Of a DNA stretch of 16,884 bases, positions 2,585 through 16,847 are shown one piece after another. The stretch is from a virus. The notes beneath the pieces were generated by a model. That model was not told the origin of the DNA, searched no databases, and worked only from the letters and a program-made list of their open reading frames with translations. Positions within the stretch are counted from its first letter, which is position 1; each line of letters begins with the position of its first letter. The stretch lies in the UHGV virus genome UHGV-0068632; one strand, given 5' to 3'. Made by a program: the position numbers and the translations under genes.

Positions 2585-4924
2585 ATGGCTACCAGTGTAG
2601 GTACAATTTATTACGAAGTTGATGCAAAAACTGGTCAACTTCTCGTTGCACAACGACAGGCAGACCAGGCCTTTGACCGTATAGAGCGCGGCGCAAAACA
2701 GGCTGACCGCCAGGTAAACACCCTGAAAACATCCATCAAGGCACTGACCAGGGTTATCCATTTGCTAATTGCTGCCGAGGCTGTGCGCCAATTTATGGAT
2801 ATGGCGGAGCAAGCCAAAATGCTTCGCGTAAAAATCAAATTGCTTACAGGTGAAGCGGAGGCAACGGAACGGGTTTTCAACAGACTGAAAGAAATATCAA
2901 AAGAAACAGGCCAAAGCCTCAAGGATACTGGTGCCCTGTGGCAAGGTCTTGCTATATCGCTAAAAAACACATCCGCCACAGAAGGCCAGGTGCTCAACCT
3001 GGTCAGCACGCTGCAAAAACTTGGTAACTTGGGCGGCGTGTCTGCGGAACAACTATCAAACTCCATGCTTCAGTTCCGCCAGGCTATTGATGCTGGCGTG
3101 TTGCAGGCGGAAGAGTTCAACTCAATACGTGATAACACCCCAACAATCATACAGGAAATGGCCCGACAGATGGGGTTATCTATGGGGCAGTTCCGCGCCG
3201 AAATGCTGGACGGCAAGATCACGGCTGAAAGGATGCTCAACGCGATCCAGGCGGCTACGCAGGAAACAAACGAGAAGTTTGCACAGTTACCGCGCACGTC
3301 CGGTATGGCTTTTAATGAGCTTAAAGTCGAGGTGATGGGACTTGTCGAACAACTTGATGATCTTTTCGGCATATCAGATGGCGTTGTGTCAGCTATCGAC
3401 TTAATAACTGGTGGCGTTGAGGGATTAGGTAAAGGCGCAAAATTCGCCGCAACCTGTTTCAATACACTAAAAACGGCTGGCAGTGAGTTTATCGACATGT
3501 TTGATGATGTTGCTGTTAAAGCTGGTGAGGTGGCGGAAGAGATTATCAGGATGGTAACGCCAATCAAAGCGCTAATGGATGGCTACAAATGGATGAAGGA
3601 GATCATTGATAAACGCAAGAATGAGCTAAACAGCAACAACGAAAAGAAATTCGGCCCTACAGTCGGTAAGGTCATGACGTTTGCAAATGACATCAAAAAT
3701 GCGACCGCCGCTTATGATGAGTTTATGCAGAAACAGGGTGAGGCTGATGACGGCAAGATCACCGGATTCGATCAGCCAGTTGGCAAGCCGAAAAAAGGGA
3801 AAAAAGACAAGAAATCTGAAGCTGATCGGCTTGGTGATGAAGGCATAAAAGTATCCGACCAGTACAACAAAGACGCCGCAGCTATGCGCAAAGCGTTAGA
3901 GAACGGCAAGGCCATTGATGCTGCATTCGCCCAGGGTAAAATCACTCTCCTTGAGTACCGCGCCGCGCAAAAAGGGATAGGTAAGGAACTGAAGGAAGAA
4001 TTAGCGCAAATTCCGGTAGATGAATTGCGTGATAAATGGGCGCAAATAGTAAGCCCGATGGATCAGCTTAAAGGTGAGGTTGACCCTATCCAGCAGGTGC
4101 AGAATGAATGGGCCGTCCGTAAGCAAATGCTTATCGACCTGGGCGTTACTGAAGCGCAACAGAAACAGGAACTGTTAGCCTATGAGCAACAGATCCGTGA
4201 TCTGAAGTGGGAACAGTGGCAGGCACAAAGCGATACAAACGGCCTTATCGGTGATTGCGTTAATGGCCTAAAAGGTGGTATGAGCAATGCACTTGTTGGC
4301 CTGTTAAATGGTACTCAATCATTGAGTGATGTTTTTGCTAACTTAGGCAGCAATATCCTCGGGAATATCGGTAACAGGCTTTCAGACATAGCTGCAAACT
4401 GGATAGCAGATCAGATCATGATGGAAACGCAAAGCAAAGCGACTCAGGCAAGTACCACGGCGGGCGCGGTAGCGGCGCAAGGCCAGATTGCTGCGGCGGC
4501 GGCCCCGGCGGCGGCGGCAACAGCGGCGTCAACTGGCGGCGCATGGGCGGCGGCTGGTTCTGCGGCACTCACTGCGATCATGTCGCTGGCTACGTCAATT
4601 TTCGGCGGCGGTCGCTTTAATGGTGGTAGCGTTATTGGTGGCAATATGTACCGCGTAGGGGAACACAACAGGCCGGAGCTATTCCAGACATCTAACGGAA
4701 ATCAATATATGATCCCAGGCGAGAATGGCAGGGTTATTCCTGGGCGTGATATTGGCGGTGGCGGCGGCATTAGTATGCCTGTCAATATCAACATTCAGAC
4801 CACAAACGGATTTAGCGACGAAGACAGTCGCAGACTTGAGCAAACAATGGAACGTGTAGCAATGAAGATGATAACAAGGGAATCACAAAGACCTGGAGGA
4901 ATATTGCAACCGCGCCGCAAATAA
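2585..4924 (+). CDS. Tail tape measure protein, 779 aa
   Basis: Large ORF in the expected position, with RBS gagg 8 nt upstream. Has the mostly helical N-terminal region and the Ala/Gly-rich hydrophobic segment (QASTTAGAVAAQGQIAAAAAPAAAATAAS...) typical of tape measure proteins. Followed by gpM/L/K/I/J homologues. Confidence 0.9.
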   Translation: MATSVGTIYYEVDAKTGQLLVAQRQADQAFDRIERGAKQADRQVNTLKTSIKALTRVIHLLIAAEAVRQFMDMAEQAKMLRVKIKLLTGEAEATERVFNRLKEISKETGQSLKDTGALWQGLAISLKNTSATEGQVLNLVSTLQKLGNLGGVSAEQLSNSMLQFRQAIDAGVLQAEEFNSIRDNTPTIIQEMARQMGLSMGQFRAEMLDGKITAERMLNAIQAATQETNEKFAQLPRTSGMAFNELKVEVMGLVEQLDDLFGISDGVVSAIDLITGGVEGLGKGAKFAATCFNTLKTAGSEFIDMFDDVAVKAGEVAEEIIRMVTPIKALMDGYKWMKEIIDKRKNELNSNNEKKFGPTVGKVMTFANDIKNATAAYDEFMQKQGEADDGKITGFDQPVGKPKKGKKDKKSEADRLGDEGIKVSDQYNKDAAAMRKALENGKAIDAAFAQGKITLLEYRAAQKGIGKELKEELAQIPVDELRDKWAQIVSPMDQLKGEVDPIQQVQNEWAVRKQMLIDLGVTEAQQKQELLAYEQQIRDLKWEQWQAQSDTNGLIGDCVNGLKGGMSNALVGLLNGTQSLSDVFANLGSNILGNIGNRLSDIAANWIADQIMMETQSKATQASTTAGAVAAQGQIAAAAAPAAAATAASTGGAWAAAGSAALTAIMSLATSIFGGGRFNGGSVIGGNMYRVGEHNRPELFQTSNGNQYMIPGENGRVIPGRDIGGGGGISMPVNINIQTTNGFSDEDSRRLEQTMERVAMKMITRESQRPGGILQPRRK

Positions 4925-7628: not shown

Positions 7629-7739
7629 CACCTCCGCGCCATTTTGTTAACTGTGCTTCCGTTTGAGTAAAATATACATATTGTATAAACCGCGATCAAT
7701 CCATTTTGGTATGATTTAGCGTGACGCAGATCACAAAAT
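7629..7739. promoter_or_regulatory. Divergent promoter/operator region carrying the shared motif family
   Basis: Motif variants at 7629-7641 (ccattttgttaac), about 7669-7681 (catattgtataaa) and 7701-7715 (ccattttggtatgat, containing the extended -10-like TGGTATGAT). agatcacaaaat at 7728-7739 is identical to 15004-15015. Confidence 0.4.
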
Positions 7740-7753
7740 CAGAAGGTGAGAAA

Positions 7754-8458
7754 ATGCGCAATATACCTACAGAGATGATTATTGATTCCGTGGACGCTGG
7801 TGTGGGCGCGGTGATTGACTTGTTCGAACTGGACTTGTCGCCCCTGGGTGGCGAGGTTATCCGCTTCCATTCCGGCGCGAATGGCTATTACGGCCCGGTT
7901 ATCTGGAAGGGATTAACTTACAACAGCTACCCGATCGAGGCTACTGGCTTCGAAATGAAAAACGAGGGCGTTTATTCGCGGCCTCAAATGGTTGTAGCCA
8001 ATATCGGCGGGCTAATCACAGGGATGAATAACGACTTCAACGACCTGCGAGGAATGAAGGTTACGCGCCGCCAGGTGGAAGTAAAATACCTGGACGCCGT
8101 TAACTTCCCAAACGGCAATCCAGACGCAGATCCATCTATTGAGGCTGTATCTTTTTACGTCGTGGAGGCCATGAGCGAGGAAACAGCGGATCAGGTGCAA
8201 TATGAGCTGTCAACGCCAATTGATGCTGATAAGGCCGTTATCCCTGGGCGCACCATCCTTGCTGACGTTTGCCAGTGGCAATACAGAGGCGACGGGTGTA
8301 TGTACGCTGGCGGACCAGTAGCAAACGATAAAGACGAGCCGACAAGCGATCCTAAAGCCGACAGATGCAGCCACCGTCTAAGCGGTTGTCGTTTGCGTTT
8401 CCCGCGTCCAAATCCGTTACCGATTTCCTGTTTCCCTGGTTCCAGTAAGGTAGGTTAA
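7754..8458 (+). CDS. Minor tail protein, lambda gpL-like, about 234 aa
   Basis: Extended match to my recollection of lambda gpL: TGFE, SRPQ, GMxxDxxxL, VTRRQV, FLDAVNFPNGN, AVxPGRxxLAxxCxWxYRGDxC, CSHRLSGCRLRF. The ATG at 7754 follows gaaggtgag; the track's start at 7721 is a GTG inside the conserved leader motif. Confidence 0.9.
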   Translation: MRNIPTEMIIDSVDAGVGAVIDLFELDLSPLGGEVIRFHSGANGYYGPVIWKGLTYNSYPIEATGFEMKNEGVYSRPQMVVANIGGLITGMNNDFNDLRGMKVTRRQVEVKYLDAVNFPNGNPDADPSIEAVSFYVVEAMSEETADQVQYELSTPIDADKAVIPGRTILADVCQWQYRGDGCMYAGGPVANDKDEPTSDPKADRCSHRLSGCRLRFPRPNPLPISCFPGSSKVG

Positions 8459-8460
8459 TC

Positions 8461-9192
8461 ATGGTAATGGAAGACAAAATGTTGCGTTATGCCGCCGCGC
8501 ATCCGTTTGAAGAAGTTTGCGGACTGGTAATAGATAACGAATATTTTTACCCGTGCGCTAACGTGTCTGAAACGCCCTACAACAGCTTCAAAATTTCGCC
8601 GGACGATTACATCAAAGCTGACGAATTGGGCGTTATAACCGCCGTTTTTCACTCTCACGTTGATGATATTCCGGTATTGTCGGCACGGGATCGACAACAG
8701 CAGGTTATTTCAGGACTACCCTGGCTTTTGTATTCAGGCGGAAGGATCAGGAAATTCCGTCCGGTAGCGCACCTGTTAGGCAGAAAATTTGAACACGGGA
8801 AAACAGACTGCTACGCGCTTTTCCGCGACGCCTATCACCTTTGCGGCGTGGATCTGCCTGACTTCGAGCGCCTTGATGGGTGGTGGTTGCGTGGTGAAAA
8901 CCTGTATTTAAAAAACTTGCCTCTAAACGGGTTTTTCCAGGTTGACGCTAAAAGCATACAGCCTGGAGATGTAATTATCCGGCAGCCGTTTAAAGGCGCG
9001 GACCCATGCCACGCGATGATTTACCTGGGCGATAACACTGTTTTGCATCATGACAATGCCGGACTGCTAAGCCGCCGCGAGCAAATGCGGCCCGCTTATG
9101 TTCGACAAACGCATTCAATATGGAGATCTGATAAATGCTCAAATTTAGATTTACGGGCAATCTTCGAAGATATTACAGCAAAGTGTGTTTAA
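8461..9192 (+). CDS. Tail assembly protein, lambda gpK-like, with MPN/JAB and NlpC/P60-like domains, 243 aa
   Basis: N-terminal EEVCGLV plus HSHVDD...S..D, a JAMM-type metal-binding motif. C-terminal half has a conserved Cys (KTDCYALFRDAY) and His residues (HAMIYLGDNTVLHH), as in NlpC/P60 hydrolases. Lambda K has the same two-domain layout. Confidence 0.9.
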   Translation: MVMEDKMLRYAAAHPFEEVCGLVIDNEYFYPCANVSETPYNSFKISPDDYIKADELGVITAVFHSHVDDIPVLSARDRQQQVISGLPWLLYSGGRIRKFRPVAHLLGRKFEHGKTDCYALFRDAYHLCGVDLPDFERLDGWWLRGENLYLKNLPLNGFFQVDAKSIQPGDVIIRQPFKGADPCHAMIYLGDNTVLHHDNAGLLSRREQMRPAYVRQTHSIWRSDKCSNLDLRAIFEDITAKCV

Positions 9193-9665
9193 ACGTTGAA
9201 ACGCCAGCGCAAGGACTTCGCTTGTTGACCGCGCAGAATCAGGAATTCAAGAAGGCGTTTTTAAATACACCTTTGCGTTTACGAATTTCCGGGAAAGATT
9301 ACGACGAAAAGACCGCGCCCGCTGCGGTTAATAGCAAATATCCAGATGGGACTACGGTAATTATTGCGCCAATAGTGGAAGGTGGTATTGCAGGGATCGG
9401 TGTGGTCGGTTGGATTATGATCGGAATATCAGTTGTTAGTGTCGCATTTTCTATTTTCATGTCTCGCAACATGAAGGTGAAAACATCATCAGAAAGCGCA
9501 CAGGATAACACCATAACAAACAACAGTTACACCAGCATAGAAAACAGGGTGGGCCAGGGTAGACCAGTGCCAATTTTATTGGGTGAAATGAAAGTAGGTT
9601 CAAACGTCGGATCGTTAGGCATAGACACAACAAACAATAAAGACGCCTTAGACGTTGTAAGTTAA
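9135..9665 (+). CDS. Tail assembly protein, lambda gpI-like, 176 aa
   Basis: N-terminus LKFRFTGNLRRYY aligns with lambda I (ICLYGDLQRFG). Has the Gly/Ala-rich hydrophobic stretch and LLGEMKVGSNVGS, corresponding to lambda LYGEMRVGSRVVS. Overlaps the 3' end of the gpK-like gene by 58 bp in another frame, as in lambda. Confidence 0.85.
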   Translation: MLKFRFTGNLRRYYSKVCLNVETPAQGLRLLTAQNQEFKKAFLNTPLRLRISGKDYDEKTAPAAVNSKYPDGTTVIIAPIVEGGIAGIGVVGWIMIGISVVSVAFSIFMSRNMKVKTSSESAQDNTITNNSYTSIENRVGQGRPVPILLGEMKVGSNVGSLGIDTTNNKDALDVVS

Positions 9666-9679
9666 CAGGAGAAATAACC

Positions 9680-12600
9680 ATGAGTAGCGGCGGCGGCAAA
9701 GCAAAAACACCAACTTTAATTAACGATAATCTATATCACAAACAGTTTTATCGTGTACTCGACATTATTTCAGAAGGTCCGATTTATGGTCCTGTTAATA
9801 CCAATGCGCCATTAAACAGCGTAATGCTTAATGACACCCCTGTAACTGACGCGAACGGCAATACCAGCATCCCCGGTATTAGCGTAGCGTGGCGCAATGG
9901 TACGATAGATCAATCACCGATTAACGGTTTTAACGCCATTGAATCAACCGTTATTGTTAACGCACAGGTTAAACACGATACACCAATAATCAGGACCGTT
10001 TCCGATCCTAACGTAAACCGCGTTCGCCTGAATATCGGCGTCGATTCACTTGTACAATCTGACGAGCAAAGCAATCAACATAACACATCGGTTATGATGA
10101 TGATTGACGTGAAGCCTTCGTCTTCTTCTACGTGGACGCTTGTTAAAGACGTTACTATAGGCCCAGGTAAGATCAGCGGAGAATATCTTGAAGCGCATAT
10201 TATCAATGCACCAGATGAAAAACCGTTTGATATTCGCGTTCGCCGTGTAACCGCTGATAGCACAAGCGATCTGTTGCAGAATGATACGCGATGGAGTAGC
10301 TACAGCGAAATAATCGACGATAATTTGTCTTATCCTCACACCGCTGTAGCTGGCGCGGTAATTGACCATGATCAGTACGCTGACACGCCTACCCGCACCT
10401 ATCACCTTCGCGGGCTGATTGTTGATATTCCTGATAACTACGACCCGGAAAAGCGCACTTATTCCGGTTTGTGGCTTGGCGGCTTCAAACAGGCGTACAC
10501 CAATAACCCAGCATGGATCTTCCGCTATCTGGTTAAAAACGAGCGTTTCGGCCTTGCTCGTCACGCTGGCTATATTGACGTTGACGACGGCGCATTATAT
10601 ACGCTTTCTCAATACTGCGACCAGTTGGTTGATGATGGCTACGGCGGCCTTGAGCCTCGCATGACGCTTAACGCTTACATCACAGAGCAAATGAGCGCCC
10701 GCGACTTACTGGACAATATCGCCGGGATGTTCAGGGGTATCGCGTTATGGGACGGGCAACGCCTTACCGTGATGATTGATGCACCACAAGACCCGATCGC
10801 CACCATTACAAATGCAAATGTCGTTGATGGCGCGTTTACTCGTTCAAGTATCGCCCGCGCAGAATGCTACAACGCCGTGATCGTATCATGGACTGACCCG
10901 GAAAACGGATGGGAGCAATCAAAAGAGTATGTAGCAGACGATGAACTGATCGCCCGTGATGGTTACAACGAAACCACGTTAGAGGCGTTCGGGTGCACAT
11001 CACGCGGGCAAGCATACCGCGCGGGCAAGTGGCTGATAGAAACAGCAAAACGCGAGCCGTCAAAATTCACGTTTAAAATGGCGCGTGACGCGATTCACTT
11101 TACGCCAGGGGATATTATCGAGATACTCGACAATAACCGCGCAGGCGCTCGTTTAGGCGGCCGCATCGTTGCGAACAACGGCAAAGTAATAACGGTAGAT
11201 AAGGTTGACGCCAATTATATCGCCGCTGGGGATACAATCAGCCTTCTTGATAGCGATGGCAAGTTTAAAAAGCATCAGATCACCGGGGTGAGCGGAAACA
11301 AAATCACACTGGCGGCGGCCCCGTCATGGATTCGAAACGGCACTGTTTTTGCTGTATCCACTGAATCAGCAAAACCCGTTTTGTGCCGGATCACCAGTGT
11401 AGCCGAAACAGAAAATAACAGCGTGTACACCATCGAGGCCGCACAGCACGACCCGAACAAGCAAGCAGTGGTCGATGAAGGCGCAATATTTGAAGTCAAC
11501 AATGACACGCTTAACCATTTCCGCGTGCCGAACATTGAAAATCTGAAGGTGGTAAACATTGGATCGGAAACAATTCAATGTCGCGCCACATGGGAAACGC
11601 AGACAACAACGCATCGTATGACATTTGAGATCCGCATATATAATGCAGATGGTGCGGTGGTTAAAAGCTATGAAACAACGAAATACAGTTATGATTTTTA
11701 TGGCATTGACGCTGGCGTGTATTCTTTAGGGGTTCGCGGAAGAAATGACACTGGCATGAAGGGCGCGGAAAGTATTGTGGATCTGGTTATTGGTGCGCCA
11801 GCAGCGCCAATAGGTGTTAACTGGGTACCAGGTGTATTTCAGGCTACCGTATACCCGATAAGTAAGACAACGCTAACCACTGATACAGCGTATGAATTCT
11901 ACTATGCAGGGGAAAACCAGATCACAGATCCGGCAAAAATAACCACGGCGGCACAGTTTACCGGGCGCGGGTATCAGTGGACGTTCGGCGGAATGAACAC
12001 GGGCCATACTTATTACGTTTATGTGCGTACACGTAATGCTTTTGGCGTGTCAGACTTCGTTGAAGCATCAGGTAAGCCGACAGAAAATTTTGATGAAATT
12101 AGCGATTACGTCACCAAAGACGTGATGAATTCCGAACAATTTAAAGAAATGGTGGGCGACATTAAGGATCTTGGCGATCGCACTGACATTATCGAAAGTG
12201 CAACTCAAGACCTTAAAACAGCTACTGATACCCTAAGCGGAATAACTGAAGGCTTAAGAACTGATACTGATAATTTAATTACAGAAACAGAATCAATTAA
12301 AGCTGATACTGATTCCCTTAAAAAAGACACTGAAGACCTTTACAAGAAAGTCGAAGAAAACGCCGATGAAATAGGTAAACATGAGGTAAGAATTGACTCA
12401 TTAGAGGTATCAAGCGAAAACGTAGATAATGAACTGGCACAGACAAAAGCAAGCCTACAAAACGCATCGCTTGCTCTTATTAATAATTCGCTTGCTCAAA
12501 CTAATACCAGAAGAACGCTGACAGCTCAGATCAAAAACGTGGATTATGAAACTAAGGCGCAAATAGATCGCATTGATAACGTGATTGTCAGTGAAAAAGA

Positions 12601-14599
12601 AGCAAGAGCGGAGGCAATGGAGACAATTACCGCCGAAATCGACACGATGGATAAAAACATCAAAGGTGAGATTGCGCGCGTAGATACTGCCATTGCCAAT
12701 GAGAGCCAGGCAAGGGCTGATGCCATCAGTGAAGTTAGCGCAAACATTGACGCACTTGATAGTAAAACAGATGCCAGTGTTAATCGTCTTGATCAAGCTA
12801 TCGCAGATGAGGCCAGCGCACGCGCACAGGCTATCAGCAATGTCAATGCGAGCATGACAAATCTTGATAACAAGGTTACAAGCAACGTTTCTAGACTTGA
12901 TCAGGCAATAGCTGACGAATCAAGCGCAAGAGCAGAAGCCGATGATCAGTTAATAGCAAAAAGCGAAAAACTTGATGGTGATCTCGCTATGGCAAGGGCA
13001 AGCCTACAAAACGCTTCGCTTGCTCTCATCAATAATACATTGTCTCAGACAAAGACAAGGCGCACTCTCACAGCGGAGTTCAAACGCGGACAAAGTGAAA
13101 CTAAAGCACAAATTGACCGTATTGATAATGTCATTACTGACGAAAAACAGGCAACAGCGGAAGCGTTTGAAACTATCACAGCAGAAATGAACACGATGGA
13201 CTCAAACATTAAAGGAGAAATATCACGATTAGATAAAGTGATCGCGACTGAAACGCAAGCAAGATCTGAAGCTATAAGTAGTGTTAATGCAAGCATAAAG
13301 ACGCTAGAAAGCGACACTGAAGCCAGCGTTAACCGTCTTGATCAGGCAGTTGCTGACGAGGCCAGCGCCCGCGCACAAGCTATCAGCGGAGTAAATGCAA
13401 GCATCAGCACGCTTGATAGCAAGGTTACAAGCAATGTGACCCGTATCGACAAAGCTATTGCAGATGAGACGCAGGCCCGCACAGACGCAATAAGCAACCT
13501 TAACTCATCGCTTACCAGTACGATTAATTCTAAAGTATCTGAAGTATCAACAGCACTTTCTACGCATGAAGCATCAAGCGCGGAAAAATTCAGCCAGATC
13601 TCAGCGTCTTTCGAAGCTGTAAACTCAAGCATCACGGAATGGTCGCAGACCATGACAACGGCGGACGAGGCATTATCAACCAAAATTGATCAGTTAACAG
13701 TAACCGTTAATGGGAACACAACAGCGATCGAGACGACATCGAAAGCGTTAACCGACTTCAAAGGTAATGTTGATGCGTCATGGTCAATCAAGATTGCTAC
13801 TGATAACAACGGCATGAAATACGCTACAGGTATGTCGCTTGGCCTGACTGGTAGCGGGACTAACGTTCAATCGCAGTGTATTTTCCTCGTTGACCGCTTC
13901 GTGTTAATGACCGCAGCAAACGGCACATATACAACGCCTTTCTATGTGTCTAATGGTGCAATGTATGTGAAAGAAGCGTTTATTAAAAACGCATCAATAG
14001 GTACAGCTAAAATTGCAGATGCAGCCATTACTATGGCTAAAATTGTTAATGAAATAAAATCATCAAACTATGTTGCTGGTTCTAAAGGTTGGAGGATAAC
14101 ACAAAGCGGATCATCAGAATTTAACGATGTTGTGGTAAGGGGCGAAATCCATGCTAATAGCGGTAAATTCAAAGGAACTGTAGAAGCTACATCCTTTGTT
14201 GGTGATGTCGCATCTACTAACGTTATACCGCAATCATCATTCCCTGGGACAAGTACAAGCGGATCTCGATCTGTTACGAAGACGTATAAAGATTCATCAT
14301 CAAGCTCGCTTTCGAAAACAGTTTTCGTAATGATTCCTTACCATCTTACTTATTATACTTATTCAGGATCATCAACAATAAAAGTAACAATTGATATTAA
14401 TGGCAATAGCAAAACATATAACGTAGTAAGGGCGGCATCATCGCCTCAATTCGGATTTACGGTATCACATTGCGTAACTGGGATTACTGCTCAAACAGTT
14501 ACGATAAAAATAACAGAGGAATACACCAACACCGGAACATCAGCAGAAAGAAGGCCAGGTCTTGCACTTGTTACAAGAAGCTCAGGATCATGGTCATAA
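9680..14599 (+). CDS. Tail tip / host specificity protein, lambda gpJ-like, 1639 aa
   Basis: Collinear similarity to lambda J over the N-terminal roughly 800 aa (for example SEGPIYGPV, YHLRGLIVDIPDNYDPEKRTYSG, LSQYCDQLVDDGYGGLEPRMTLNAY, FGCTSRGQAYRAGKWLIETA). Followed by FN3-like segments, a roughly 480-aa repetitive coiled-coil region and a distinct C-terminal domain. Confidence 0.95.
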   Translation: MSSGGGKAKTPTLINDNLYHKQFYRVLDIISEGPIYGPVNTNAPLNSVMLNDTPVTDANGNTSIPGISVAWRNGTIDQSPINGFNAIESTVIVNAQVKHDTPIIRTVSDPNVNRVRLNIGVDSLVQSDEQSNQHNTSVMMMIDVKPSSSSTWTLVKDVTIGPGKISGEYLEAHIINAPDEKPFDIRVRRVTADSTSDLLQNDTRWSSYSEIIDDNLSYPHTAVAGAVIDHDQYADTPTRTYHLRGLIVDIPDNYDPEKRTYSGLWLGGFKQAYTNNPAWIFRYLVKNERFGLARHAGYIDVDDGALYTLSQYCDQLVDDGYGGLEPRMTLNAYITEQMSARDLLDNIAGMFRGIALWDGQRLTVMIDAPQDPIATITNANVVDGAFTRSSIARAECYNAVIVSWTDPENGWEQSKEYVADDELIARDGYNETTLEAFGCTSRGQAYRAGKWLIETAKREPSKFTFKMARDAIHFTPGDIIEILDNNRAGARLGGRIVANNGKVITVDKVDANYIAAGDTISLLDSDGKFKKHQITGVSGNKITLAAAPSWIRNGTVFAVSTESAKPVLCRITSVAETENNSVYTIEAAQHDPNKQAVVDEGAIFEVNNDTLNHFRVPNIENLKVVNIGSETIQCRATWETQTTTHRMTFEIRIYNADGAVVKSYETTKYSYDFYGIDAGVYSLGVRGRNDTGMKGAESIVDLVIGAPAAPIGVNWVPGVFQATVYPISKTTLTTDTAYEFYYAGENQITDPAKITTAAQFTGRGYQWTFGGMNTGHTYYVYVRTRNAFGVSDFVEASGKPTENFDEISDYVTKDVMNSEQFKEMVGDIKDLGDRTDIIESATQDLKTATDTLSGITEGLRTDTDNLITETESIKADTDSLKKDTEDLYKKVEENADEIGKHEVRIDSLEVSSENVDNELAQTKASLQNASLALINNSLAQTNTRRTLTAQIKNVDYETKAQIDRIDNVIVSEKEARAEAMETITAEIDTMDKNIKGEIARVDTAIANESQARADAISEVSANIDALDSKTDASVNRLDQAIADEASARAQAISNVNASMTNLDNKVTSNVSRLDQAIADESSARAEADDQLIAKSEKLDGDLAMARASLQNASLALINNTLSQTKTRRTLTAEFKRGQSETKAQIDRIDNVITDEKQATAEAFETITAEMNTMDSNIKGEISRLDKVIATETQARSEAISSVNASIKTLESDTEASVNRLDQAVADEASARAQAISGVNASISTLDSKVTSNVTRIDKAIADETQARTDAISNLNSSLTSTINSKVSEVSTALSTHEASSAEKFSQISASFEAVNSSITEWSQTMTTADEALSTKIDQLTVTVNGNTTAIETTSKALTDFKGNVDASWSIKIATDNNGMKYATGMSLGLTGSGTNVQSQCIFLVDRFVLMTAANGTYTTPFYVSNGAMYVKEAFIKNASIGTAKIADAAITMAKIVNEIKSSNYVAGSKGWRITQSGSSEFNDVVVRGEIHANSGKFKGTVEATSFVGDVASTNVIPQSSFPGTSTSGSRSVTKTYKDSSSSSLSKTVFVMIPYHLTYYTYSGSSTIKVTIDINGNSKTYNVVRAASSPQFGFTVSHCVTGITAQTVTIKITEEYTNTGTSAERRPGLALVTRSSGSWS
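12449..13546 (+). repeat. In-frame tandem duplication (2 x 549 bp, 183 aa each) inside the gpJ-like gene
   Basis: Unit 1 begins gcaagcctacaaaacgcatcgcttgctctt at 12449 and unit 2 begins gcaagcctacaaaacgcttcgcttgctctc at 12998. The proteins ASLQNASLALINNSLAQTNTRRTLTAQ... and ASLQNASLALINNTLSQTKTRRTLTAE... are collinear. Each unit holds three shorter repeats of about 36 aa of the RLDQAIADEASARAQAIS type. Confidence 0.8.
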
Positions 14600-14606
14600 A
14601 AAATAA

Positions 14607-14632
14607 CCCCGCTTCGCGCGGGGTTTTCTTTT
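14607..14632. terminator. Bidirectional intrinsic terminator between the J-like gene and the lipoprotein gene
   Basis: CCCCGC-ttcgc-GCGGGG at 14607-14623 followed by TTTTCTTTT. Lies 8 nt after the J-like stop codon, and the minus-strand lipoprotein stop overlaps the T-tract. Confidence 0.65.
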
Positions 14633-14879
14633 AGTAGTTAGCTACACAATTCGACGGGCTACCTATGCGGCGCATGTTGTGATCGAGTTCATGACACCAT
14701 TGACCAGTATATGGCAGTTTTTCAGTGTCATATACAAGATGACCATTAGCATCATAGACGATTTCTTGTGGAATCACTCCGCTATTTGGCAGGTTATGCA
14801 ATGCAGCTTCTTTGTCAACAGCGCAACCAGTAAGAGCAACAGCCGCAGCGAATAAAACCACTTTGAACATGTTTTTCAT
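14631..14879 (-). CDS. Small outer-membrane lipoprotein, 82 aa, in the Cor/Llp position (candidate receptor-blocking superinfection exclusion protein)
   Basis: N-terminus MKNMFKVVLFAAAVALTGC has a signal peptide and lipobox L-T-G-C with Ala at +2. RBS gagga 6-7 nt upstream. Encoded convergently just downstream of the receptor-binding J-like gene, where T1/phi80-type Cor and T5 Llp genes are found. Assigned by position and type, not by sequence homology. Confidence 0.7.
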   Translation of the reverse strand: MKNMFKVVLFAAAVALTGCAVDKEAALHNLPNSGVIPQEIVYDANGHLVYDTEKLPYTGQWCHELDHNMRRIGSPSNCVANY

Positions 14880-15056: not shown

Positions 15057-16847
15057 ATGATTTATACAACGGGAACAATTGCCATTAACGGCAATACTGT
15101 TACAGGCACGGGAACAAACTTTTCCGCGCCGCTTTCTCTCATCCGTGTAGGTTGCACGCTCATTGCCATTAGCAATCCTATCCAGATCTTTACCATCACA
15201 GAAATTAAGAGCGGTACTGAACTGTCAGTGACGCCAGCGGCTAACCCTGCAATTGCTGCCGGGGCAAAATTCAGCATTCTGCTTTCTGACTCTATCTCAG
15301 TTGATGGGCTTGCCCAGGATGTAGCGGAAACACTTCGTTTTTATCAGGAAAAAGAAGACGAAATATCCAGCGCAATAGATGGCAGCAATATTGGCTTAGG
15401 TCCAGAGCCGCGCGATTGCGTCGATATATCAGGCGATCCGTCTTCTTACGTTGGCTTTTTGCGCATAAAGGAAACGACTAAGGGTTTTCCTTCTGTAGCG
15501 GCTGGTGAATCATTTTTGAGTGGATTTATCTGTCAACGAGACACGACGCCTTCATATACAGGCGTCTTTGTCGGTTGGGCTACGCGATCACTTTATACGT
15601 ATACATGGGTCGCAACATCAGGTCCGAACTGGACACGACACGCAAGAAAAGATGAGGTGGATAGGCTTGTTCAAAGAACAGGAGAAACTCGCGTACGCGC
15701 TCAAAACGCAAATAAATTCCTTACCGTCTATGATTCAGGATCGTGGGGTTATTATGACTCAGAGGCTAGTAAATGGCTACCGCTTCCAGTTCTTGCTGGA
15801 GGCACTGGTGCGGGAAACGCAGAAGAAGCAAGAAATAATTTAAATCTTGGTGAAAGCAACGCGGTTAAATTCAAAAACCTTACGTTAATAGGGGCGCTAG
15901 ATGCAAATTTAGGCATGCTCGTAAAAACTGGAAGAGACTGGAATACTCAGCACACTGACAATATCCAAAAATTTATACCAATGGCAGGAAGCACAAACGG
16001 ACCCGCCGGAGCAATGGTACTCGGTGGCTTCCATGTGCAATACAGCACAAATTACGCTGTGCAATTCGGGGGTCGAAATTCCGGTTTTTGGGGTAGAACA
16101 ATTGAAAACGGAACAGTTCAGGAATGGCGTCAACTAGCTACGCTTAACACATCCGGTCAAAAATGGACTGCCGGTCAGCATTTTGTGACGACAAAAATTA
16201 ACTCTTATGATTTCACAAGACGTTTAACTATCGATGTGATAGAAAACGCAAAAACAAACGCACGGTTACGCTTATGGGGATCAGAAACAAGGCAGTCCGT
16301 TTTAGAATATGGACTCTCGAACGCTGAAACCGATGAGTATAATACATATGGCTTTTATTGCCAGCTTAACCCAGACGGAGTAATTAGTTTTCAGGTTAAC
16401 GGCGTAGTAAACTGCACAGCAGTTAATCAGACTTCAGATCGCGATCTGAAGGACAACATTCAGGTTATAGGTGATGCAACTGAAGCAATCCGTAAAATGA
16501 ACGGGTACACCTACACCCTCAAGGAAAACGGCCTGCCTTACGCTGGCGTTATCGCTCAAGAGGTAATGGAGGCGCTGCCGGAGGCTGTGGGATCGTTTAC
16601 TCATTACGGTAAAGCATTACAAGGCCCGACCACTGACGGCAACGAGCTACGCGAGGAAACGCGTTACCTCAATGTTGACTACGCTGCGGTGACTGGTTTA
16701 CTTGTTCAGGTGGCACGCGAAACAGATAACCGCGTCACCGAACTGGAGGAAGAAAACGCCAGCTTACGAGCTAACATTGCCGTCATGGATGAGCGGATCA
16801 CAAAACTTGAAGCGCTTGTCAGGCAGTTAACCGGAAGCGAAGAATAA
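15057..16847 (+). CDS. Tail fibre protein with C-terminal intramolecular chaperone (peptidase S74-like) domain, 596 aa
   Basis: RBS ggag 9 nt upstream. The C-terminal roughly 135 aa (TSDRDLKDNIQVIGDATEAIRKMNGYTYTLKENG...AGVIAQEVMEALPEAV...) matches the conserved self-cleaving chaperone module of endosialidase and T5 L-shaped fibre proteins, and ends in a coiled-coil (LEEENASLRANIAVMDERITKLEALV). Confidence 0.85.
   Translation: MIYTTGTIAINGNTVTGTGTNFSAPLSLIRVGCTLIAISNPIQIFTITEIKSGTELSVTPAANPAIAAGAKFSILLSDSISVDGLAQDVAETLRFYQEKEDEISSAIDGSNIGLGPEPRDCVDISGDPSSYVGFLRIKETTKGFPSVAAGESFLSGFICQRDTTPSYTGVFVGWATRSLYTYTWVATSGPNWTRHARKDEVDRLVQRTGETRVRAQNANKFLTVYDSGSWGYYDSEASKWLPLPVLAGGTGAGNAEEARNNLNLGESNAVKFKNLTLIGALDANLGMLVKTGRDWNTQHTDNIQKFIPMAGSTNGPAGAMVLGGFHVQYSTNYAVQFGGRNSGFWGRTIENGTVQEWRQLATLNTSGQKWTAGQHFVTTKINSYDFTRRLTIDVIENAKTNARLRLWGSETRQSVLEYGLSNAETDEYNTYGFYCQLNPDGVISFQVNGVVNCTAVNQTSDRDLKDNIQVIGDATEAIRKMNGYTYTLKENGLPYAGVIAQEVMEALPEAVGSFTHYGKALQGPTTDGNELREETRYLNVDYAAVTGLLVQVARETDNRVTELEEENASLRANIAVMDERITKLEALVRQLTGSEE

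Follow-up and report, generated by a model that had tools for sequence, protein, structure and literature searches.

How a phage lengthens the fibre at the tip of its tail, and what that length might serve, are questions raised by the J gene of UHGV-0068632, a viral DNA stretch of 16,884 nucleotides (the window hereafter, meaning the whole stretch). J, the central tail fibre gene (9680..14599, plus strand; 1639 aa), is the largest open reading frame (ORF) of the window and is identified by its Pfam and lambda gpJ matches. A first-pass annotation, made from the letters alone, had described a 549-bp in-frame tandem duplication at 12449-13546 within a presumed coiled-coil stalk, and had proposed comparing J with itself and with related phages. 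Self-comparison returns a significant internal repeat, and relatives carry from 2 to 15 copies of the 36-residue unit that composes it. The resulting picture, a modular helical shaft that holds an old duplication and belongs to a family in which length changes by recombination between units, is probably right as a whole. Both the modular helical shaft and the recombinational change in length are well supported.

A helical shaft of heads and 36-residue units

The duplication is real and stands well above chance. When the ORF is compared with itself by blastn, 12412-12888 pairs with 12961-13437 over 479 nt (72.0% identity, E 2.8e-70), at an offset of exactly 549 nt, and an exact-seed repeat search likewise returns a repeat family at this offset. 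The encoded copies (aa 913-1091 and 1096-1274) align without gaps by Smith-Waterman, with 68.7% amino acid and 68.2% nucleotide identity. A self-similarity scan of aa 912-1290 peaks at an offset of 183 residues (z 23.7), followed by 36 (z 17.9) and then by 219, 72, 147, 255, and 108, while the largest z among 300 shuffles was 4.7. Tandem Repeats Finder reports neither a 549- nor a 108-nt period for this repeat because the copies are too diverged. Similarity begins approximately 35 nt before 12449, at 12412/12416. The boundaries first proposed are nevertheless natural ones, as 12449 is the first codon of ASLQNAS and 13546 lies one codon past the eighth unit.

The internal composition differs from that initially described. 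Rather than three repeats of about 36 aa, a hidden Markov model (HMM) of the unit finds that each 183-aa copy consists of a 38-39-aa head and four 36-aa units, which start at aa 962, 998, 1034, and 1070 in the first copy and at aa 1145, 1181, 1217, and 1253 in the second. All parts of the shaft lie on the plus strand. A heptad zone (12158..12448; aa 827-923, 97 aa) opens it with 7-aa repeats of the LKTATDN type, followed by a unique stretch that leads to the first head. Head A (12449..12562; aa 924-961), with the sequence ASLQNASLALINNSLAQTNTRRTLTAQIKNVDYETKAQ, contains a 21-nt repeat at 12467-12506 detected by Tandem Repeats Finder. Units 1-4 form block A (12563..12994; aa 962-1105), contiguous and gapless at 50-64 bits each. 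The gap between the blocks is filled by a 39-aa linker, which is head B (12995..13111; aa 1106-1144) and is modelled as a helix by AlphaFold2 (AF2) with a pLDDT of 81-95. Units 5-8, also delimited by the unit HMM, form block B (13112..13543; aa 1145-1288). The arrangement is therefore head, four units, head, four units (4+39+4). Units 4 and 8 are dissimilar in their second halves (37% nucleotide identity). Heads follow the pattern ASLQNASLALINN...TRRTLTA..., with four units behind each. They are the best-conserved part of the stalk, and their first 14 residues are near-invariant in all relatives, even where DNA identity is 53-72%. Three minus-strand ORFs of 90-113 aa (12455-12796, 13045-13317, and 13342-13683) run antisense to the repeats; they are probably spurious, a by-product of the Ala-rich and strongly constrained sense frame.

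Sequence periodicity and modelling both point to a long helix. The hydrophobic period is 3.60 in the unit arrays (3.59-3.61) and 3.54 in the heptad zone, and no comparable peak occurs in the J core. Across 71 units from eight phages, positions 1, 4, 8, 19, 22, 26, and 29 are 90-100% V/I/L/M, and E11 and A14 never vary; R15, conserved at 83%, lies like E11 at a core position. Each unit thus amounts to ten helical turns with 10 core positions in a 7+11+7+11 pattern. AF2 models aa 1107-1332, linker included, as one unbroken helix, the pLDDT being 91-98 with 54 aligned sequences as input and 71-90 with the sequence on its own. The stalk proposed by the first-pass annotation, running from the J core to a distal domain, is accordingly upheld as a long helix by the Pfam layout, the 3.60 period, and the AF2 model, but not as a canonical heptad structure, since only the heptad zone comes near a period of 3.5. 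Because the arrays have a period of 3.59-3.61, the shaft is better termed a helical bundle with regular stutters than a canonical coiled coil.

The helix continues through a neck (13544..13675; aa 1289-1332) that AF2 also models as helical, that is 37% Ser+Thr, and that is conserved in relatives. Long antiparallel strands follow from aa 1338 in the AF2 model. They belong to a beta-prism, or central straight fibre (13691..14167; aa 1338-1496), recognised by Pfam as Phage_Tail_Tip (PF09327, aa 1349-1496, E 4e-36) and by Foldseek, whose best matches to the model are the lambda gpJ central fibre structures 8xcj/8xci (E 1e-6, probability 1.0). The shaft, which spans approximately 500 residues (~aa 827-1332), joins the conserved hub to this beta-prism and to an exchangeable receptor-binding tip. 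It is a greatly enlarged and modular form of the alpha-helical shaft of lambda gpJ and F-type pyocins, built in three tiers: a zone of 7-residue repeats, conserved heads of 38-46 residues, and arrays of 36-residue units.

Lambda gpJ (PDB 8IYK, 8XCJ, 8XCK), a homotrimer at the tail tip, aligns with aa 1-850 of the window protein and has a similar beta-prism. Its alpha-helical shaft, between FNIII-2 and the beta-prism, flips after LamB binding, when residues 841-861 become strands (PMC11101478). The lambda shaft is a short three-helix bundle for which neither repeats nor length variation have been described. F-type pyocin central fibres share the J-like hub, two FNIII domains, a long alpha-helical shaft, and a beta-prism; their shaft is a trimeric coiled coil that also docks side fibres (PDB 25VF, PMC13455828; PA0641, bioRxiv 2026.02.24.707460). 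The F2 pyocin fibre 25vf matches the window beta-prism (E 3e-22) and, weakly, the shaft; sequence matches to the beta-prism region also come from gp24 of 23gd and from T1 gp33. However, the pyocin shaft has only ~163-180 residues, most of them in heptads interrupted by one stutter, and no repeat array has been described in it, whereas the window shaft (~500 residues, and ~300-800 in relatives) is made of modules that vary in number and keeps to a period of ~3.6. T1 gp33 (PDB 9L9P; PMC11945409) is the only solved-structure entry that matches the unit profile (E 2e-7). It carries four IA(D/T)ETxA units upstream of the same beta-prism domain, spaced by 33 rather than 36 aa, and its segment 821-1172 is unresolved in the structure (PMC11945409). 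Outside J, two of the best unit-profile matches are proteins with an anchor or stalk domain of the YadA family, in each of which the profile matches 10-12 stretches. YadA stalks are likewise trimeric, helical, and built of repeats; these are outer-membrane adhesins, and the likeness is one of repeat chemistry rather than of demonstrated homology.

Unit number among relatives and age of the duplication

Comparison with related J genes indicates that shaft length varies by whole units, as the first-pass annotation had anticipated for fibres of different isolates. Seven phages, 18 E. coli prophages, and 12 IMG/VR genomes were surveyed, giving 37 J genes with the window included. One of the prophages, RM9245, was omitted from this total and from the scaling analysis on account of its divergent stalk with other repeats. 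Unit totals range from 2 to 15 and J lengths from 1350 to 1935 aa, with the units always in register. The J gene of mEp515 equals that of mEp021 minus 1002 nt (8 units and a 46-aa linker), with 0 other mismatches, and the junction of this indel falls at the edge of a 35-nt identical run common to mEp021 units 5 and 13. Similarly, CB7286, GN04592, and LP26 have 3, 4, and 5 units in block B and differ by 108 or 216 nt, with only 0-1 nt of difference elsewhere. The adjacent units at these indels are 100% identical (108/108 between LP26 units 7 and 8). MIN12 and 2-331 are one unit apart. These near-identical genes directly document that recombination between repeats changes unit number in the family. 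Whole units of 108 nt, or entire blocks, are gained and lost through in-register exchange where two units still have tens of identical bases in common, and such variants are viable as phages. Both mEp021 (13 units) and mEp515 (5 units) form plaques and require OmpA (PMC11893012), so that a difference of eight units is evidently tolerated.

Stalk and beta-prism homologues in databases are mostly annotated as partial, suggesting that contigs from short reads frequently end within J repeat arrays and making copy number in draft genomes unreliable. Word-indexed protein searches gave 12 and 9 matches, mostly partial, and were unsuited to a copy-number survey; a protein profile search gave 4226 matches, chiefly Enterobacter J fragments, which were used only for the AF2 alignment. 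An exhaustive profile search with the 36-aa unit returned 67 representatives, 11 of them at E<=1e-10, and the recognisable unit is therefore narrowly distributed. The J of E. coli RM9245 has a tip of the window type, one canonical unit, and otherwise stalk repeats of the TLESSTSQSIEKLESQVNDD type, which may represent a second repeat family at the same position.

In the window itself, the duplication is poorly placed to recombine further. The first-pass annotation had argued that DNA identity between the copies makes unequal crossing-over likely, but synonymous sites are saturated (pS 0.74; third-position identity 40%) and identical DNA in register extends over no more than 17 nt when the 549-nt copies are compared, and over <=15 nt when 36-aa units are. 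Units within one block are 45-56% identical in nucleotides. Long identical DNA runs, as expected of a recombination-prone repeat, are absent here and present in relatives; saturation and short runs together do not favour further crossing-over. The duplication thus appears to be old or imported from another J gene, and is now a poor recombination substrate. A ratio of nonsynonymous to synonymous change (dN/dS) of 0.06 indicates that both halves are kept under strong purifying selection.

Unit by unit, block B is 89, 72, 81, and 94% identical in nucleotides to the single block of MagusPhagus, to which it is orthologous, and block A is 71, 67, 72, and 56% identical to it. Block A stands at ~70-75% from every other block, that is, equidistant from them. 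Both heads in the window are of the A type, whereas mEp phages carry A/B pairs, which argues that the window duplication was an event separate from theirs. None of 50,697 phage records or 5,426 complete E. coli genomes has the junction between unit 4 and the linker; the junction is present in IMGVR_UViG_2617270943_000003. This genome is 96-100% identical to window positions 12360-14599, with the same 4+39+4 array and tip, although its J core is only 77-87% identical and its heptad zone is another allele. The comparison places a recombination point near 12360, and the sharing of array and tip on a different core indicates that the two move as a module.

Several observations weigh against the overall reading or restrict it. 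The AF2 model covers aa 1106-1500 as a monomer; we infer the trimeric state and the helical conformation of aa 827-1105. Coiled coil in the strict sense would be an interpretation for the arrays, as their 3.60 period is non-canonical. The direction of the mEp021/mEp515 event, taken as a deletion, rests on parsimony. Finally, for mEpimmI phages, transmission electron microscopy gives only ~130-nm tails and mentions no central fibre of 50-120 nm, conspicuous as it would be (PMC11893012).

Scaling of the heptad zone and the role of the shaft

The length of the heptad zone scales with the number of units, a new result of this analysis and one that is unexpected for a passive spacer. Measured from DIKDLG (aa 827) to the first head, the zone occurs in length classes of 69, 76, 83, 90, 97, 104, 118, and 132 aa, which differ by multiples of 7 aa. 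Zones of 69 aa accompany 2 and 3 units, those of 76 aa 4 units (six genes), those of 83 aa 4 units twice and 5 units four times, and those of 90 aa 6 units (three genes). The window, with 97 aa, has 8 units; zones of 104 aa go with 8, 8, 9, 10, and 10 units, those of 118 aa with 5, 11, 11, 12 (six genes), and 13 (three genes), and those of 132 aa with 15 and 15. Spearman correlation is 0.945 over the 37 J genes, to be read in light of their phylogenetic non-independence, and 0.966 over 12 IMG/VR loci that were fetched after the pattern had been noticed. Taking the largest count in each of 15 lineages, defined by zones <95% identical or differing in length, zone length equals 57.7 + 4.88 x units (r 0.995), although taking the maximum favours the fit. 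Lineages whose zones are only 76-88% identical keep an equal unit count, even though arrays can change between near-identical genomes, and all departures from the scaling are toward too few units for the zone. The relation corresponds to approximately one heptad per 1.3-1.4 units; in lengths, ~1.05 nm of spine in helical form would go with 1.3 nm of putative prism. The idea that the heptads offset the supercoiling of the units (twist compensation) was considered and ruled out: the periods of 3.5 and 3.6 are both below ~3.63, and heptads and units must therefore twist the same way.

It is plausible that unit copy number sets the distance between baseplate and tip, as had been proposed. A fully helical shaft would project the tip by up to ~76 nm in the window. 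By homology with lambda gpJ and F-type pyocins, however, the shaft is probably metastable, changing its structure once the receptor is bound, and not a passive rod. In the F7 pyocin, the shaft converts wholly to a beta-prism, killing requires this conversion, ~100 residues upstream form a spine on the prism, and buried Glu-Arg pairs together with an SxSxxMxxLxS pattern mark the region that switches; comparable switches have been predicted in 21/24 siphophage fibres (bioRxiv 2026.01.28.702463). Tentatively, and with the likelihood leaning against it, the whole array of heads and units (~370 residues, and up to ~625 in relatives) may be a giant switch of the F7-pyocin type. The ten helical turns of each unit (5.4 nm) would then refold as one beta-hairpin layer of ~1 nm in a triangular prism, with the upstream heptad zone becoming a spine along it, and the conversion would reel the tail tip tens of nanometres toward the cell after receptor binding. 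Such a switch would explain the lock between zone and units, the departures that all fall toward too few units, and the stutter-rich 3.6 period; ~1.05 nm of spine per 1.3 nm of prism is, in order of magnitude, what a spine fitted to the height of the prism would need. The protein context agrees, with a helix up to aa 1332, strands from aa 1338, and F2 pyocin homology. Like the F7 switching region, the window units have a Glu-Arg i/i+4 pair at the core and small-x-small motifs in alternating orientation. The SxSxxMxxLxS pattern fits each unit once in each orientation, at positions 35-9 (92-100% conforming) and 14-24 (90-100%). There are 25 matches in aa 912-1345 against 5.9 +/- 2.4 in shuffled sequences, although the pattern is loose, the repeats are non-independent, and some units hold a third, overlapping match. 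The heptad zone has no match of this type. Monomer AF2 runs with 1 or 54 sequences gave helix both times and no beta-prism alternative, whereas the published method predicts trimers from alignments of widely differing depth. A fold switch has been demonstrated only in the pyocin.

The rival readings concern either the existence of the duplication or the work done by the shaft. That the second copy arose by misassembly or as a chimeric contig is a thought prompted by the origin of the window in a short-read gut metagenome assembly and by the many partial database homologues, consistent with contigs that break in J repeats. Nonetheless, copies only 68% identical cannot stem from reads that were duplicated or collapsed, the reading frame is intact, with the low dN/dS noted above, an identical 1639-aa protein is encoded on 4 separate human-gut metagenome contigs, and the same array recurs in IMGVR_UViG_2617270943_000003. 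Two-block J genes also occur in isolate phages and complete genomes. Divergence, frame, the four contigs, and the independent IMG/VR genome lead us to reject an artefact as exceedingly unlikely. A more serious contender, though one that falls short of an even chance, is a static spacer, a rigid trimeric rod with no other role than to keep the tip at a fixed reach, for instance so that porins can be contacted across O-antigen or capsule. Unit number would then drift or adapt to surface thickness, and the link between zone and units would reflect shared ancestry or selection on total length. The helix-only AF2 results agree with a rod of this kind, as do the free assortment of stalk length and receptor type, the common receptor of the 5-unit and 13-unit phages, and the spacing of zone and array, which lie ~200 nt apart and are usually co-inherited. 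However, if a stiff rod 50-120 nm long separated receptor and tube mouth, the path of the tube to the outer membrane would be hard to explain, and the homologous shaft rearranges in lambda and the F7 pyocin. Moreover, selection on total length predicts neither a fixed ratio (15 lineages, r 0.995) nor one-way departures, and arrays that change fast would not be expected to hold their unit count in lineages with 76-88% identical zones.

An improbable alternative assigns the shaft a role as docking platform. The heads, or the acidic Gly-containing stretches that precede them, would anchor side tail fibres as on the F-pyocin shaft, and duplication of a head with its array would either change the spacing of the side fibres or provide a second tier. 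Side fibres of the F2 pyocin bind the shaft kink at residues 953-956 (PMC13455828), which aligns weakly (14.6 bits) with window aa 1088-1091, DDQL, at the junction of block A and the linker; this alignment alone is insignificant (i-Evalue 0.1), and AF2 models the linker as unbroken helix. The strong conservation of the heads fits a docking role, as does the side-fibre gene with an S74 chaperone domain downstream of J (15057-16847), but relatives with a single head carry side-fibre genes too, and lambda side fibres attach to gpV/gpM via the collar rather than to J.

Duplication alone would be ordinary tail-fibre modularity, and both the repeats in these J proteins and long shafts in pyocins were already known. 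The mEpimmI J proteins (mEp021, mEp010, mEp013, mEp044, mEp515, and mEp554) and that of MagusPhagus represent the same gene, with the same synteny, domain order, heads, and 36-aa units. Their C-terminal part was reported in 2025 to contain "repeats of different length (positions 950-1,475)", along with a terminus that is less conserved (PMC11893012), a description that defines no 36-aa unit, unit-exact indels, or zone/unit scaling; nor was any description of these three found elsewhere in an incomplete search of the literature. Compared with these phages, the window has a 4+39+4 array from two A-type blocks, and it carries a third type of tip. Otherwise identical J genes that differ by 1, 2, or 8 units are natural experiments on shaft length that need no engineering, and allow its effect on adsorption, host range, and DNA delivery to be measured. 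Two arrays that scale within one protein are what the newly proposed coiled-coil-to-beta-prism mechanism would demand, provided that spine length has to follow the height of the prism. If this fold switch is true, common human-gut coliphages carry the largest known protein fold switch, it can be tested in a plaque-forming phage rather than a bacteriocin, and mEp021 and mEp515 are a ready series for the scaling of stroke length and stored energy.

The receptor-binding tip and the surrounding genes

The region from 13700 to 14599, which the first-pass annotation took as one exchangeable module, is divided. Its proximal part (13700-14179) is the conserved Phage_Tail_Tip beta-prism, and neck and beta-prism together (~13544-14167) are 76-89% identical among relatives. 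Past ~aa 1510, identity to the window tip is 84% in MagusPhagus and 09-00049 and drops to 31-36% or 11% in others, while cores remain 91-98% identical. The drop delimits a distal variable receptor-binding module (14210..14596, plus strand; aa 1511-1639), and only these last ~130 aa are exchangeable. The distal region is Ser/Thr-rich as supposed (Ser+Thr 27-34%, with 34% in the tip), but its GC content is only mildly low (0.39-0.41, about 0.40, versus 0.455 for the window). One tip type is common to LamB-dependent phages and another to OmpA-dependent phages (PMC11893012); the window tip is a third C-terminal type, distinct from both. Each tip type occurs with several shaft lengths, and shaft length and tip type thus assort independently among the genes compared.

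Upstream of the shaft, J combines a gpJ-family hub with FNIII and Ig domains. Its aa 1-850 match lambda gpJ (8iyk_J) at E 2.6e-184 by phmmer. Pfam finds FNIII-A_GpJ (aa 88-214), Phage-tail_3 (aa 335-492), Ig_J (aa 609-707), and Ig_J_second (aa 709-811); these four lambda-J domains (PF24801, PF13550, PF24421, and PF24489) all pass the cut-off. The J gene of the window is 82-89% identical in nucleotides to those of MagusPhagus and mEp010/013/021/044/515/554, and 91-98% identical in amino acids in the J core. It belongs to an mEp021-like coliphage from a human gut metagenome, whose relatives belong to the mEpimmI group of human-gut coliphages (PMC11893012). Membership in this group is supported for the J region only, by the 82-89% identity, the same neighbours, and a lipoprotein 91-98% identical. 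The J protein of mEp021 has been detected in virions by mass spectrometry (PMC11893012).

The neighbouring genes follow the order TMP-L-K-I-J found in all relatives examined: upstream of J lie the tape-measure gene (TMP; 2585-4924), L (7721-8458), and K (NlpC/P60; 8461-9192), with the I-position ORF (9135-9665) directly before it. Downstream, a bidirectional intrinsic terminator (14605..14625; no strand assigned), a GC-rich hairpin with T-runs on both strands, separates J from a convergent gene on the minus strand (14631-14879) for an 82-aa lipoprotein with the lipobox LTGC. This lipoprotein is 91-98% identical to that of LamB-dependent mEp phages, though the J tips differ. Phages with OmpA-type, LP26-type, or GRITGSW-ending tips have unrelated lipoproteins (Cor in UMNK88 and M15). 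The idea that receptor module and downstream lipoprotein form one mobile cassette is only partly true, as a LamB-type lipoprotein accompanies a different tip here. Elsewhere in the tail module, mEp021 and mEp515 have, between I and J, an additional HNH-endonuclease-like gene that is missing from the window, and the tape-measure gene contains a short Ala-rich GCG/GCGGCGGCAACA repeat at 4493-4533. A 219-aa ORF on the minus strand (1665-2324), between the tail-chaperone-like and tape-measure genes, matches VasI (PF11319, E 2e-14), a type VI secretion family, and is an odd passenger of the module.

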